NCBI GenBank assembly: GCA_002688015.1
Contig: NZBT01000011.1
Coordinates: forward strand, 1 to 59,921
Length of the DNA: 59,921 nt
From: Candidatus Pacearchaeota archaeon
GTDB taxonomy: Archaea > Nanobdellota > Nanobdellia > Pacearchaeales > GW2011-AR1
Direction of reading: 5' to 3'
Made by a program: the position numbers and the translations under genes. Below, one piece after another: positions 6,865 to 58,515 of this stretch. A model generated the notes under the pieces. That model was not told where the DNA came from, searched no databases, and saw nothing but the letters and a program-made list of their open reading frames with translations. Numbering within the stretch: position 1 is the first letter of the stretch; every line of letters starts with the position of its first letter.

Positions 6865-6974
6865 AAATGTATACTTTAAAGCGGCTTTTTAAGACTTTCC
6901 TTAACTCTGTTTCACTAGAGACTCCTAACACTCTCAGTTAAGTTTAAAAGGGATTTTTATCTATTCAAATTAAT

Positions 6975-7047
6975 GCCTGTATAGTGTAGTGGCCAATCAC
7001 ATCGCCCTTTCGCGGCGGGGACCCGGGTTCGACTCCCGGTACGGGCA
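6975..7047 (+). tRNA. tRNA-Glu(UUC)
   Basis: Cloverleaf with acceptor GCCTGTA/TACGGGC, anticodon TTC, T loop TTCGACT. Confidence 0.95.
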
Positions 7048-7049
7048 TT

Positions 7050-7691: not shown

Positions 7692-7855
7692 AAAAACAAT
7701 AAAACCAACAGCCTTAAAAACCCTTTTTATTTCTAAAAACCATGACACTAGAACAATCATGGGAGTTTGCCCATCATCTCAAGAAAATCTGTTTTTCCTA
7801 GTCTAGGCCTTGATTCTATAAATCTTTATATACCAAATTTCACTCAATTAAATAT

Positions 7856-7927
7856 GGTGGTTGTCGTATAGCGGTAGTACACATGGTTGTGGTCCATGAA
7901 GGGAGAGTTCAATTCTCTCCTTCCACC
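7856..7927 (+). tRNA. tRNA-His(GUG) with genomically encoded G-1
   Basis: Anticodon arm CATGG-TTGTGGT-CCATG, T arm GAGAG-TTCAATT-CTCTC, C73; two U-U mismatches in the acceptor stem. Confidence 0.88.
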
Positions 7928-7928
7928 C

Positions 7929-7973
7929 TCTTTGTCTGCCGAGGTGAGTACTCGAACAAGAGTAGATCAAAGA
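7929..7973 (+). repeat. 45-nt tRNA-trailer hairpin, copy 1
   Basis: 35/45 identical to 58296-58340, with compensatory changes. Confidence 0.8.
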
Positions 7974-8022: not shown

Positions 8023-9249
8023 ATGAAATTTGAACCAGAAACAGTAAAAGGATTCCAGGACTTTCTTTCTCCTGAATCAGTAAAAAGAAAACAAGTGAAA
8101 AAGATAATTGAAAATTTCTTTGAACTTTATGGTTTTATCCCTATAGAAACTCCTATTGTAGAATATGATGAACTCATGATGCCTGACTCCATAGACTCCA
8201 ATGAAGATGAAGCTGTCTCTGACCGATTTAGACTACAAGACCGTGCAGGACGTAATCTTGGCCTAAGATACGAATTCACATTTCAATTACAAAGAATATT
8301 CAAACAGAATCCAAATCTCAAATTGCCCTTCAAAAGATATCAAATAGGTCCTGTATTTAGAGATGAACCAATTTCATCAAACAGATTCAGACAATTCGTA
8401 CAATGTGATGCAGATATAATTGGTTCCTCATCTGTTGACTCTGATGTAGAATGCCTCTCTCTAATATCTGATATAACAACTGCTCTTGGAATAGAAGCAG
8501 AAATAGAGATAAACAATCGTAAACTCCTCGCTTCGATAATAGAATCTGTTCAGATACCTAATCCAAGTAAAGTAATAAAGGAAATAGACAAATTTGAAAA
8601 AATAGGAGAAGATGAAGTTAAAGCAAACCTAAGAAAATTTACAACTCCAAATCAAATAGTAACTCTTCTTAAGCTCTTAGAAAAACCTTTCTCATTTTTT
8701 CTTGAAAACGCATTTGACGGAGCTGAAGAACTAAAAAAAACAATAGATCAAGCAAAACTCTATAAGATAAAATTAAAATTCAATCCTTATCTTGCTCGTG
8801 GTCTAGGATACTACACAGGGAACATCTTCGAAGTTAAAGTTCAAGGAAGCAAAAACACAATCGCAGCAGGAGGAAGGTACGATAATTCTGTTGGAAAATT
8901 CCTAAATAGAGAAATCCCAGCAGTAGGAATTTCCTTTGGCTTAGAAAGAATAACTCAATTAGCTAAACTTTCTGTTCCCAAACCTGTAAAGGCCTTAATA
9001 ATATCAATAGATGAACCAGAAGACTCCATCTCCCTTACTAAAAAACTAAGAAAATCAAACATCCCTTGCGTTCTAACATTCGGTCAAGTAAGCAAACAAT
9101 TAGAATATGCAAATAGTCAAGAGATTCCTTACGTAATTTTCATAGGATCTGAAGAAATATCAAGCAAGAAATTCAAACTAAAAGATATGCTTTCCGGAGA
9201 AGAAAAGCTTTTAAACGGAAAACAATTAATATCTAAACTTTCAAAGTAA
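8023..9249 (+). CDS. hisS: Histidine--tRNA ligase
   Basis: LRYEFT, FRDEP, RFRQFVQCDADI, ARGLGYYTG, GGRYD, GISFGLER. Confidence 0.96.
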   Translation: MKFEPETVKGFQDFLSPESVKRKQVKKIIENFFELYGFIPIETPIVEYDELMMPDSIDSNEDEAVSDRFRLQDRAGRNLGLRYEFTFQLQRIFKQNPNLKLPFKRYQIGPVFRDEPISSNRFRQFVQCDADIIGSSSVDSDVECLSLISDITTALGIEAEIEINNRKLLASIIESVQIPNPSKVIKEIDKFEKIGEDEVKANLRKFTTPNQIVTLLKLLEKPFSFFLENAFDGAEELKKTIDQAKLYKIKLKFNPYLARGLGYYTGNIFEVKVQGSKNTIAAGGRYDNSVGKFLNREIPAVGISFGLERITQLAKLSVPKPVKALIISIDEPEDSISLTKKLRKSNIPCVLTFGQVSKQLEYANSQEIPYVIFIGSEEISSKKFKLKDMLSGEEKLLNGKQLISKLSK

Positions 9250-53160: not shown

Positions 53161-54798
53161 ATGGCAAACGTAAAATTTCCAAGAAAAGAATTCGAATCTT
53201 CTTTAGGAAGCAAGATAACAAAAGAAATGGAATCTCTAATTCCCCTATTCGGAACTCCATTGGAATCCTTATCTGATTCCGAAATTGAACTAGAAATATT
53301 CCCTAACAGGCCTGACCTATTAAGTATGCAAGGCTTTCTTCGCGCATTCAAAGCATTTATAGGTAAATCTCCTGGCCTTAAGGGATATAAAATTAACCCT
53401 CCAGAAAAAAAATATAAAGTTACTATTTCCCCTTCTGTAAAACCCGTACGTCCCTTCACAGCTTGTGCAATTGTTAAAAATCTTAAATTCAATGATGAAT
53501 CAATAAAGGAAATTGTAGATCTTCAAGAAAAACTCCACAGCACTGTAGGAAGAAATAGGAAAAAACTCGCAATTGGTATTTATCCCCTAGAAAAAATCAA
53601 ACTCCCCATAAAATACCTTGCTCTCCCCCCTAGTAAAATACATTTTATTCCCTTAGAATCAGAAAGGGAACTCTCCGGGCAACAAATACTACAAAAACAT
53701 CCTGCTGGGAGAGAATATGCCCATCTTCTTGAAGATAAAGACAAATATCCTGTTTTCGTAGATGCAAACAACAAAATCCTCTCAATGCCTCCAATTATAA
53801 ACTCTCATGATACAGGAAAAATCACTGAGTCTACTGATTCCGTATTTATAGAATGCTCCGGTTGGGATCAACAAGTACTACAAAAAACACTTAATATAAT
53901 TGTTACAACTCTCTCTGATCTAGGGGGGAAAGTATATTCAATGAATCTTCATTATGGAAGTAAAAAGCTTGTCACACCAGATCTCTCTACTGAGAAAATA
54001 AAAATCTCTCTTCCAGACATTAACAAACTTCTCGGTTTAGATCTAAAAGAATCGGACCTTTCCAAGCTCCTTCCAAAAATGGGATATGATTACAAAAACT
54101 CCATAGTCCAAATTCCTGCCTGGAGAACAGATATCTTACATCCTGTAGATATCACAGAAGACATTGCTATAGCTTATGGATATGACAACCTTGTGCCTTC
54201 AATTCCTAATGTTGCAACAGTTGCTTCTGAGTCTCAGCAAAGTAAAATAGAATCAAAGATCAGAGAAATCCTAATAGGTCTTGAATTAATTGAAATTTCC
54301 TCATATCATTTAATAAAGGCCTCTGAATCCAGACTCTACAAACTGAAATCTGTGATTGCACTAGAGGATTCCAAAACAGAATACAAAATTCTTCGCCCCA
54401 ACCTCTTAATCCCAGCCTTAAGAATTCTTGCTGAAAACAAAGACAATGAATACCCTCAAAACATATTTGAATTGGGAACTATATTCTCCCATGACGAAAA
54501 AACCGAAACAGGCCTTTCTGAATCCACTAATTTGTTAATTGCTTCTTCTCCAAGTAACTTCACAGATTTAAAGAAAATTCTCGACTATTTCGCTTCTTCT
54601 TTATCTATTAAGTTAGAAATAAAAGAATCCGAACATCAATCACTAATTCCTGGAAGAACAGCCTCAGTCCTATTAAACAACAAACCTATTGGATACATCG
54701 GAGAAGTTCATCCTCACACATTAAATCAATGGAATGTTAAGATGCCTCTTTCCGTTTTGGAAATCAGTTTAGAAGAAATTTTTAATCTCTTAGAGTGA
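53161..54798 (+). CDS. pheT: Phenylalanine--tRNA ligase beta subunit
   Basis: PNRPDLLS, QEKLH, LSMPPIINS, RTDILHPVDITEDIAIAYGY, GEVHP. Confidence 0.97.
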   Translation: MANVKFPRKEFESSLGSKITKEMESLIPLFGTPLESLSDSEIELEIFPNRPDLLSMQGFLRAFKAFIGKSPGLKGYKINPPEKKYKVTISPSVKPVRPFTACAIVKNLKFNDESIKEIVDLQEKLHSTVGRNRKKLAIGIYPLEKIKLPIKYLALPPSKIHFIPLESERELSGQQILQKHPAGREYAHLLEDKDKYPVFVDANNKILSMPPIINSHDTGKITESTDSVFIECSGWDQQVLQKTLNIIVTTLSDLGGKVYSMNLHYGSKKLVTPDLSTEKIKISLPDINKLLGLDLKESDLSKLLPKMGYDYKNSIVQIPAWRTDILHPVDITEDIAIAYGYDNLVPSIPNVATVASESQQSKIESKIREILIGLELIEISSYHLIKASESRLYKLKSVIALEDSKTEYKILRPNLLIPALRILAENKDNEYPQNIFELGTIFSHDEKTETGLSESTNLLIASSPSNFTDLKKILDYFASSLSIKLEIKESEHQSLIPGRTASVLLNNKPIGYIGEVHPHTLNQWNVKMPLSVLEISLEEIFNLLE

Positions 54799-55192
54799 GA
54801 TCTCTTTCTCTTGCTAAAGCATCCAGATACAACGATATTTGAGGGTATATTCCCTCTTCTGTTATAAAATGAATATCTTCATGATCTCTCCAATCGTACC
54901 CTTTTTCTATCACGGCATCAAGATATTGTTTAGAATTACTTAGAGTAACTTGACGTTTAATAAACTCCGAAGCCAAAAGTGAAGTAAGATGCCTAGCATG
55001 AACAAAATCCATCGTTGATGTATCTAAATCATAAGGAAGGCCTACAACATATAAAAGTCGTTCTCTTTTAGTCGGATCCTCTGGCAATTCAGATTTCCAA
55101 TCAGAAAGTTTTTCAAGCAACCATCCAACTGCTCCAGTGCTAGGACCAATAACATCTGTTTCGCCAATATGTCCTCTCTCTCCTAATACCAT
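54782..55192 (-). CDS. Hypothetical protein
   Basis: ATG ORF with upstream TATA box. Confidence 0.55.
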   Translation of the reverse strand: MVLGERGHIGETDVIGPSTGAVGWLLEKLSDWKSELPEDPTKRERLLYVVGLPYDLDTSTMDFVHARHLTSLLASEFIKRQVTLSNSKQYLDAVIEKGYDWRDHEDIHFITEEGIYPQISLYLDALARERDLTLRD

Positions 55193-55232
55193 AAAAATTA
55201 GTGAACAAGATCCTTAATAAATATTTATGTAA

Positions 55233-55703
55233 TCAACCAAAATAATTCTTTTCCTTCTTTTGAAATTCCTTAGGATTTCTCATATTCTTAAGAATTTGCT
55301 TCAAATCTCCTTTGATATCCTTCCAAGAACCAAAAATCTTCTTAATAACTTCTGATTCTTCTTTCTCATCATATTCTATCTCCAAATCAAGAGAATCCAC
55401 AATCAAACCTGCTAAAACACCATACATCTTGTTAATCTTATTTCTATCATCCTGGCCCATTGTATTCAAATAAACAGCATACATCCGAGGAGCATTCATA
55501 GGATTTAACATCATCTCCAAAAACCCAAGAGTATTTACAATTTTATCCATCATGGTCTTTCTAATAGACTTAACAAAATTACCACTTATCTTATCAAGCT
55601 TATCAATTTCAAAATCATTATTCAACTCTTTAAAACTAGGTAACTTATACTTTTTCTCATATTTTGCATATTCCTCTTCTAACTCTTTAAATTCAATGCT
55701 CAT
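55233..55703 (-). CDS. Hypothetical helical protein
   Basis: SD-like GAGGGAG; KYKLPSF..LN..FEI; ends in YFG. Confidence 0.7.
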   Translation of the reverse strand: MSIEFKELEEEYAKYEKKYKLPSFKELNNDFEIDKLDKISGNFVKSIRKTMMDKIVNTLGFLEMMLNPMNAPRMYAVYLNTMGQDDRNKINKMYGVLAGLIVDSLDLEIEYDEKEESEVIKKIFGSWKDIKGDLKQILKNMRNPKEFQKKEKNYFG

Positions 55704-57560: not shown

Positions 57561-57614
57561 TTCTAAAAGAATGAAAAGAAACATTTAAATGTATCTTTCA
57601 GGACCTTCATATAT

Positions 57615-58127: not shown

Positions 58128-58295
58128 GCTCCTGTAGTCTAGTGGCCAAAGATACTGCCCTCTCGTGTGCCGAGGATTACCTCTCTGGAGAATATCCTCA
58201 GTTCTCTCTAGGACAGGCCAAAAGTTTTGTGCCTCTTCAATATTGAAGGGGCACGGAGAACGGCGGTGACCCGGGTTCGACTCCCGGCAGGAGCA
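58128..58295 (+). tRNA. tRNA-Glu(CUC) with a 95-nt intron at 37/38 (58166-58260)
   Basis: Acceptor GCTCCTG/CAGGAGC; canonical BHB with CTCT/GGAG helix, 3-nt bulges and outer helix GTGCC/GGCAC. Confidence 0.95.
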
Positions 58296-58340
58296 TCTTT
58301 GTTCACAGATGCGAGTACTCGAGCAATAGTGAATCAAAGA
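58296..58340 (+). repeat. 45-nt tRNA-trailer hairpin, copy 2
   Basis: Homologous to 7929-7973. Confidence 0.8.
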
Positions 58341-58350
58341 AAAAAACAAA

Positions 58351-58515
58351 ATGGTAAAGAAGAAGAAATGTTTTGAATGCAAGAAGGAATTTGAAGTCAA
58401 ACCTACTGCGAGGTATGTTAGAAAATATTGCGACACTTGCGGTAAAAAAAGAAAGAAAATGTGGGATAATCAATGGAAATTGAAGTTTGAAGACTTCGAT
58501 GATGATGACGAATAA
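58351..58515 (+). CDS. 54-aa zinc-ribbon protein, not in the ORF track
   Basis: MVKKKKCFECKKEFEVKPTARYVRKYCDTCGKKRKKMWDNQWKLKFEDFDDDDE. Confidence 0.75.
   Translation: MVKKKKCFECKKEFEVKPTARYVRKYCDTCGKKRKKMWDNQWKLKFEDFDDDDE

Follow-up and report, generated by a model that had tools for sequence, protein, structure and literature searches.

The short hairpins which directly follow two tRNA genes in a contig of a Candidatus Pacearchaeota archaeon are probably copies of a non-autonomous, palindromic miniature mobile DNA element that docks in a fixed orientation at the processing junctions of tRNA genes. Many copies exist which share one hairpin structure, are placed exactly and in an oriented manner, are spread patchily among related genomes and lie, in some cases, in frame within coding genes. 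Among the explanations offered in a preliminary description of this DNA, that of a tRNA-targeting miniature mobile element is the one favored here, since the element is multi-copy and patchy, has a filled and an empty site, and includes tandem, orphaned and in-frame copies. The window, that is, the whole stretch of 59,921 nucleotides that was analysed, is contig C11 of the source genome (G000), which comprises 592 kb in 18 contigs with a G + C content of 0.34. The features around the two hairpins are the following.

7857..7928, + strand: tRNA-His(GTG), called by ARAGORN; Rfam tRNA model 49.2 bits, placed at 7857-7927
7929..7973, + strand: element copy 1, short form; 66.3 bits with the covariance model R1
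8023..9249, + strand: HisRS ORF of 408 aa, from the ORF list; its relatives were retrieved as HisRS loci; context only
58128..58295, + strand: intron-bearing tRNA, read as Glu(CUC); ARAGORN with introns allowed, isotype by eye
58296..58340, + strand: element copy 2, short form; 65.9 bits with R1
58351..58515, + strand: ORF of 54 codons with two C-x-x-C pairs, read by eye, 10 nt 3' of copy 2; context only

Both 45-nt hairpins were recovered at the places first reported for them; the reported identity of 35/45 agrees with the 10 differing positions counted in the alignment, and both copies begin, as had been claimed, at the next base after the tRNA. Copy 1 is built of a 6-bp outer stem, a bulged T, a 5-bp inner stem, an internal loop and a palindromic apex. 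The HisRS ORF begins 50 nt 3' of this copy, and no TATA-like box intervenes. The tRNA-His has a G at 7856 as a possible G-1 and no encoded CCA; its Rfam score of 49.2 bits is the lowest among the window tRNAs, and two T-T oppositions are seen by eye in its acceptor stem. The host of copy 2 is found by ARAGORN only when introns are allowed, is called tRNA-Ser with a misplaced intron, and is absent from the Rfam scan at the gathering threshold; its long intron, roughly 95 nt, bears no relation to the element. Because its anticodon loop reads CT-CTC-G by eye and its exons are like those of the tRNA-Glu(UUC) at 6974-7048, the assignment as Glu(CUC) is reasonable. The apex decamer, with at most one mismatch, occurs five times in the window against 0.95 expected, a number reached in 0 of 100 shuffles; the outer-stem pattern alone is weak, its two window matches being reached in 10 of 100 shuffles. 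Elsewhere in the window, ARAGORN calls a tRNA-Asn(ATT) with a 2235-nt intron on the - strand (53270-55599), which is probably false and could hide a split or long-intron tRNA. In addition, nearly all tRNA genes of the source genome have a TTTAAA or TTTATA box some 30 nt upstream of base 1 (window 6940-6950, 7826-7833 and 57580-57590), a spacing which suggests that the tRNA 5' leaders are very short or absent, though RNase P RNA is present.

As is usual for MITEs, copies with terminal inverted repeats are dispersed, eight in the source genome and up to 25 in any one genome. A profile search and R1 agree on the eight copies of the source genome, all of which are tRNA-linked. Six are trailers (of tRNA-His, Glu(CUC), Lys(CUU), Gly(CCC), Leu(AAG) and Gly(GCC)), one makes up the initial 43-45 nt of a 59-nt canonical intron in tRNA-Gly(GCC), and one, weaker at 22.3 bits, is inverted, that is, it lies on the opposite strand and abuts the 5' end of tRNA-Arg(UCG). 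The trailer copies of Gly(CCC) and Leu(AAG) have mismatched stems, and the latter overlaps the end of a convergent ORF. Over the seven sense copies 89.7% of the stem cells are paired and 9 of the 14 stem pairs are changed on both sides, which none of 500 shuffles matched, so that the covariation claimed for the hairpin holds in the larger set. Self-BLAST of the genome revealed no other repeat related to the element. A different hairpin repeat (AAACTTT-AGAA-AAGTTT, followed by an A-rich stretch and GGAG) stands just upstream of gene starts (C12 near 560, C14 near 37640, C4 near 3640 and C2 near 1800) and may be a shared promoter or leader.

ARAGORN makes 33 tRNA calls in the source genome, one of which is implausible for its 2.2-kb intron, leaving about 32 tRNAs, six of them with an element trailer; most tRNAs are therefore without the element. 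This count bears on the unlikely alternative that the hairpin serves the tRNA precursor as a functional RNA module, either a processing or insulation signal at a helix junction or the precursor of a protein-bound, stable small RNA. In its favor, two copies precede close co-oriented genes, where a 5'-terminal hairpin could shield the mRNA after the RNase Z cut. These two are the window copies, for which the co-oriented downstream gene of the preliminary description is real; as a rule it fails, since only 2 of the 7 copies examined in the source genome (six trailers and the inverted one) have a close co-oriented gene with no TATA-like box between, two of the remaining copies face convergent genes, and the others have a TATA-like box further downstream. 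A general role as separator of tRNA-mRNA co-transcripts was rejected on the same count (2/7). Against an RNA module stand the six trailers on about 32 tRNAs, the lack of a match in 130 of 151 sampled genera and the presence of the standard processing enzymes: RNase Z (298.8 bits, above the cut-off), archaeal RNase P RNA (118.4 bits) and EndA (an ORF of 171 aa) are all encoded in the source genome. The idea that the hairpin substitutes for a missing RNase Z or RNase P was rejected because both are present, as is EndA. A required 3' processing or read-through signal, one of the functions proposed at first, is likewise disfavored by the presence of the enzymes, by the many tRNAs without the element, by intact inverted copies and by the lack of an excess of G:T pairs in the stems.

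The element exists in a long form of about 68 nt, a medium form of about 62 nt and a short form of 45 nt, the last two being without part or all of the apical stem-loop. Long versions (66-70 nt) were found by R1 in the congener G001 and in the genus g12; they have the same basal stems, bulged T and internal loop and, in addition, an apical stem-loop. Seven long copies share a consensus fold with compensated changes in 15 of 19 pairs, and R2 is the covariance model of this long form. In 108 copies from the family, 95.8% of the stem cells are paired and all 19 pairs show double changes, as was reached in none of 500 shuffles, although the alignment was fitted to the model and is biased toward pairing. 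The 1959 stem cells comprise 1836 Watson-Crick pairs, 41 G:T, 31 A:C and 51 others. G:T is thus no commoner than A:C, which argues against selection at the RNA level, where G:U should be tolerated far better than A:C, and thereby against an RNA module. The stems look like a DNA palindrome, being almost purely Watson-Crick, and nearly all stem changes are transitions, so that the 5' arm stays pyrimidine and the 3' arm stays purine. The copies are mostly richer in G + C (0.32-0.65, most 0.43-0.63) than the genome (0.34).

Outside the stems, 85 of 108 copies have the extra-helical T, several unpaired purines hardly vary across genera, and one loop column is A in 107 of 108 copies. This constancy of the loop bases over 21 genera, while the stems vary, would suit an RNA module, and so would the intron copies of tRNA-Gly(GCC) in G000 and G001, orthologs which differ by compensated stem changes only. 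The trailers of His, Glu and Lys(CUU), compared between G000 and the orthologs in G001, keep the outer stem, differ in the inner stems and all have the short apex; from such patterns the copies within a genome appear to correct one another. A medium form follows tRNA-His in two distant genomes (L141 and L142), and the short apex equals, by eye, the medium form minus its apical 19-21 nt with one change. The short form was consequently not accepted as a plain deletion of the long form, the medium form of L141 and L142 being the nearer precursor.

No known RNA family accounts for these features. A K-turn or K-loop has a canonical stem, a 3-nt bulge and tandem sheared G-A / A-G pairs. In the short form tandem G/A can be drawn between two G-C pairs without a 3-nt bulge; in other registers GA is not kept on both strands, and one internal-loop position varies between G and T with its partner column. 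The suggestion of an L7Ae K-loop-like site was consequently dropped upon inspection, the 3-nt bulge beside the tandem G/A being missing and the apex being swapped in the medium and long forms. K-turn, hammerhead, HDV-like and hatchet ribozyme structures were rejected by eye and with Rfam, and the Rfam comparison, which also covers the twister and pistol ribozymes, gave no matching family. The Rfam scan of the window at the gathering threshold gave only tRNAs, scans of seven long-form loci at E up to 10 gave nothing overlapping the element, and eleven further loci at gathering gave only tRNAs and one 5S rRNA. The reservation made at the outset, that further copies might lack the structure or the tRNA association or might match a known Rfam or REP family, applies only in part; further copies keep both structure and tRNA link, and no Rfam family matches.

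Placement relative to tRNAs was classed for the 111 distinct copies outside the source genome, taken from all R2 matches in the sample of 151 genomes.

41 of 111 copies: sense, abutting the 3' end of an ARAGORN-called tRNA
4 of 111 copies: sense, behind a T-loop and acceptor end only
10 of 111 copies: inverted, abutting the 5' end of a tRNA
6 of 111 copies: in a canonical intron, at its extreme 5' end (the 5' splice site)
3 of 111 copies: at a contig edge
47 of 111 copies: unclassed context

Sense copies begin directly after the discriminator base, inverted copies lie directly before base 1 and intron copies directly after base 37. For the register on the acceptor stem only clear cases were used, namely tRNAs 70-90 nt long with 7/7 acceptor pairs and a spacer of 1, since chance matches of 7-mers within 330 nt make the script noisy; in these cases model position 1 either coincides with the discriminator or follows it. 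None of the 111 copies was classed in either of the two mirror arrangements, so that the same arm faces the tRNA on either side, and the end of the pyrimidine-rich arm is always the one joined to the tRNA helix end; a possible exception is a weak copy of 25 bits (L029:1228-1293), which may lie antisense with its end next to the 3' end of a tRNA. As to the ends of the element, the first base is usually T (78/106) and a T often follows, and no consistent direct repeat that would define a target-site duplication was found at the copies.

The 47 unclassed copies include tandem and nested ones and ones behind orphan tRNA 3' fragments, for example a copy behind an 11-nt repeat of the 3' end of tRNA-Glu, and some may follow multi-intron tRNAs missed by ARAGORN. 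At L009, L046 and L047:1437-1560, the element is separated from the intact tRNA by degenerate tRNA 3' fragments or by a repeat of 11 nt from the tRNA 3' end, as though the tRNA had received a new 3' end and the former one had retained its hairpin. In G126, two high-scoring copies (L027:1455-1500 and L048:1455-1500) lie behind the same conserved segment of about 45 nt with TGATGA (C-box-like), in which neither a tRNA nor an Rfam family was found. In G175, a copy (L030:1480-1590) is flanked by a 9-nt direct repeat within a larger inverted repeat, and an adjacent tRNA was not detected.

The exact coincidence with the RNase Z site and the 5' splice site speaks for an RNA module, as does the intron of tRNA-Gly(GCC), in which the hairpin forms, by eye, the helix beside the 5' bulge of a plausible bulge-helix-bulge motif. 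Such a motif consists of two 3-nt bulges on opposite strands with a 4-bp helix between them. To draw a putative one by eye in this intron, the 16-nt tail beyond the hairpin is needed; TTGC of the exon would pair with GCAA close to the end of the intron, and the hairpin helix would adjoin the 5' bulge. In trailer copies a single unpaired base, the discriminator, separates the acceptor stem from the hairpin, and since the second bulge is absent, the motif is not formed there. Moreover, at 62-75 bits the inverted copies of 5' ends are no less well preserved than the sense ones, although their loops would be complementary in the precursor, which is difficult to reconcile with a function of the RNA.

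A fixed orientation relative to the tRNA body on both sides would also be expected if the hairpin were a DNA-level protein-binding site kept by the host beside tRNA genes as a terminator, a boundary or a barrier to integrating elements. The strand-symmetric stems and the perfect 8-10 bp palindrome at the apex of the short form agree with such a site. The long and medium forms, however, are without a palindromic centre, the extra-helical T (85/108) and the asymmetry of the loops suggest a folded single strand, and copies in coding genes and a patchy distribution do not suit a binding site of the host, so that this explanation is held to be highly improbable.

The scan of related genomes with a covariance model, which the preliminary description had recommended, showed that copies recur, are tRNA-linked and keep the structure. 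R2 matches were found in 21 of 151 genera of the same family (one genome per genus), with 1-25 copies per genome, and 130 were without a match. A second sample had matches in 12 of 105 genomes from the family and in none of 45 genomes from eight sister families; as far as searched, the element is restricted to one family of DPANN archaea with small genomes. By comparison, the five genomes examined with the Rfam tRNA model yield 26-37 tRNAs each. Close relatives by HisRS are MAGs labelled Woesearchaeota, Pacearchaeota or Nanoarchaeota. Presence is mixed even within genera (2/3, 1/2, 3/4 and 1/4), and the orthologous tRNA-Lys(UUU) site holds the element in G001 and is empty in G000, with the downstream flank conserved. 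Filled and empty orthologous sites (tRNA-Lys(TTT)) together with a patchy spread (the within-genus counts) are features of MITEs, and one filled and one empty ortholog is not what an RNA module predicts. Other sites recur: the intron copy of tRNA-Gly(GCC) is found in at least five genomes, and the order tRNA-His, hairpin, HisRS is shared by the source genome and the distant L141 and L142. His-specific marker bases were dropped as proof of orthology, since the variant also occurs behind other tRNAs. When the Lys/Gly(CCC) locus was compared with metagenome contigs of four runs, which offer only pieces too short to show an empty site, filled sites were confirmed and no clean empty site was found. 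Two contig pieces (X2 record 6 and X3 record 13) span tRNA, hairpin and downstream sequence without differences. A joint that skips 163 nt at this locus was not trusted, as it rests on a single contig with a 30-nt side.

At least four copies lie within coding genes, all in one common phase, without stops and with the downstream frame kept.

L032: copy in MetRS, ORF of 505 aa
L056: copy in MetRS
L031: copy in an L31e-like gene, ORF of 206 aa
L058: copy in an unnamed ORF of 162 aa

These four behave like RPE inserts, the reading frame being kept open. To keep the frame, an insertion must add a multiple of three nucleotides, as 68+1 would, though this agreement is no proof. The two MetRS copies occupy the same site in two genera (G072 and G120), and the hairpin is kept through compensated changes. 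At a further locus of G120 (L079), two copies occur within about 700 nt, one of them in an open frame of 329 aa in a phase unlike that of the other coding-gene copies. The existence of in-frame coding copies and of tandem copies is a further argument against an RNA module.

The search for a mobilising enzyme gave no related autonomous element or transposase, as would be sought for a MITE, among Y1_Tnp proteins or viral contigs. A Y1 transposase of the IS200/IS605 type is not associated with the element, being found in 6 of 21 element-bearing genomes and in 41 of 130 others, a comparison which assumes that both counts cover the same 151 genomes; nor was it found in the four richest genomes (G120, G156, G126 and G064), which are incomplete. 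Viral contigs gave eight matches to a two-motif pattern, none of which was confirmed by the model and none of which is near a tRNA. Reverse transcriptase was found in 1 of 6 element-bearing genomes searched; the genomes used in the transposase and reverse transcriptase searches are all incomplete (62-95%).

The last result bears on movement at the RNA level, in which an excised hairpin RNA would be joined to tRNA ends (after 73 or 37) by tRNA ligase or reverse splicing and then copied into DNA. Such a route would explain why the junctions coincide with RNA cleavage sites, all three kinds being cleavage sites of RNase Z, RNase P and EndA, and why one element is met both in trailers and as the 5' portion of introns. 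The introns of similar sequence that Thermoproteales have at different tRNA positions, treated in passages of a review on the subject (PMC4090602), are in line with it. The same passages favor a DNA-level process, though; inverted 5' copies and in-frame coding copies are not expected from ligation to tRNA ends, and reverse transcriptase was met in the single genome mentioned. Movement of the RNA is accordingly very improbable.

A mobile DNA element remains the preferred reading, and its life cycle may be pictured as follows. The element would insert at tRNA junctions outside the mature tRNA and be transcribed within the precursor, and RNase Z, RNase P or the splicing endonuclease would then remove the hairpin. 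An insert of this kind would be harmless and persistent because it lies outside the mature tRNA and is removed by normal processing. Elsewhere, the element would survive only where it is tolerated, that is, beside another copy, behind dead tRNA ends or in frame in proteins, where the tolerated sites are presumably surface-exposed parts rich in lysine and glutamate. The hairpin, the extra-helical T and the unpaired purines would be kept because the folded single strand is read by the mobilising or copy-correcting machinery, and gene conversion between copies would make the apex uniform within a genome. In short, we infer that mobility is at the DNA level, that the target is chosen by structure and that the tRNA processing enzymes remove the insert.

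Some features suggest selection in place instead, namely, the near-invariant unpaired bases, the recurrent copy in the intron of Gly(GCC), the compensated MetRS copies and the recurrent His/HisRS order; these could equally result from reinsertion at hot spots or from gene conversion. A more far-reaching version of the mobile element, which is put forward tentatively and has a rather low chance of being right, is structure-guided homing to three cut sites of the pre-tRNA (after 73, before 1 and after 37), which would make the element a living example of the gain of introns and flanks, with some copies adopted by the host and a mobilising machinery of an undescribed kind. A copy landing at 37/38 would become an intron or extend one, and the host could have taken over some copies as a splice-motif helix or as a hairpin that acts like a cap at the 5' end of a co-transcribed mRNA, for instance that of HisRS. 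The undescribed machinery is proposed because the richest genomes were without Y1 transposase and reverse transcriptase in the searches.

In behaviour, the nearest analogues appear to be the palindromic GC clusters of fungal mitochondria. GC-rich palindromes of Neurospora mitochondria reportedly flank tRNA genes, and the archaeal element similarly sits beside tRNA genes. Where they are treated in PMC4478555, the yeast GC42 and related mitochondrial GC clusters are short G + C-rich hairpin repeats in an AT-rich genome which end in AG or ACT direct repeats, and fungal mitochondrial GC clusters are sporadic, vary in copy number, merge and shuffle, change rapidly in their stems and lie in some cases in a protein gene. 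The archaeal element is likewise a short hairpin, G + C-rich relative to its genome, sporadic and sometimes in a protein gene; unlike these clusters, it is unrelated in sequence, resides in an archaeal chromosome, has an exact and oriented junction and has no direct repeat defined at its ends. Rickettsia palindromic elements (RPEs) are small palindromic repeats of a reduced genome, some of which are inserted in frame in genes without disrupting them. The archaeal element resembles them in its in-frame copies in MetRS (twice), L31e and one further ORF, and differs in being unrelated in sequence and mostly at tRNA ends, a preference for tRNA gene termini being, to our knowledge, not reported for RPEs.

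Within the archaea, the tRNA introns of Thermoproteales offer another comparison, since similar inserts are found in different tRNAs and positions, by a mechanism that is described as unknown and probably DNA-level (Fujishima et al. 2010, as presented in passages of PMC4090602). The present element likewise implies spread among tRNA genes, whereas the Thermoproteales introns are bounded by bulge-helix-bulge on both sides and the element is found mostly in trailers and leaders outside the tRNA; unlike those introns, the hairpin is not a full intron alone, as a tail of 16-22 nt completes it, and it also occurs in coding genes. REP/REPIN sequences with RAYT and the hairpin ends of IS200/IS605 are imperfect hairpins which are read as folded single strands and inserted in an oriented manner beside a target. 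Unlike in these systems, no co-occurrence with a Y1 (HUH) transposase was seen, and the target is a structural position rather than a fixed tetranucleotide. Integron attC sites are imperfect hairpins, with extra-helical bases conserved over sequence, at the 3' end of a gene unit. The likeness to attC is one of design only, as no arrays are found here and the boxes differ. No known element among those compared is related in sequence or reported to dock with base precision and in one orientation at tRNA gene ends, and a search of the accessible literature found no description of this element.

For annotation, the element matters because it confuses tRNA finders and could pass for a regulatory RNA, and its in-frame copies would lengthen essential proteins by about 23 residues. 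Docking that is oriented and exact to the base at a structural landmark would also be of interest as an engineering principle once the enzyme is found. The mechanism by which archaeal tRNA introns are gained is called unknown in the passages of PMC4090602 on this matter, and why similar introns turn up in unrelated tRNAs is an open question, for which the element may show how tRNA genes gain sequence. With one element in trailers, leaders and 5' splice sites, in many copies and at filled and empty sites, this question becomes testable by comparative genomics and enzyme assays. For the archaeon itself, the finding would mean that a minimal DPANN genome of 0.6 Mb harbors selfish DNA, parked where the tRNA processing enzymes erase it.
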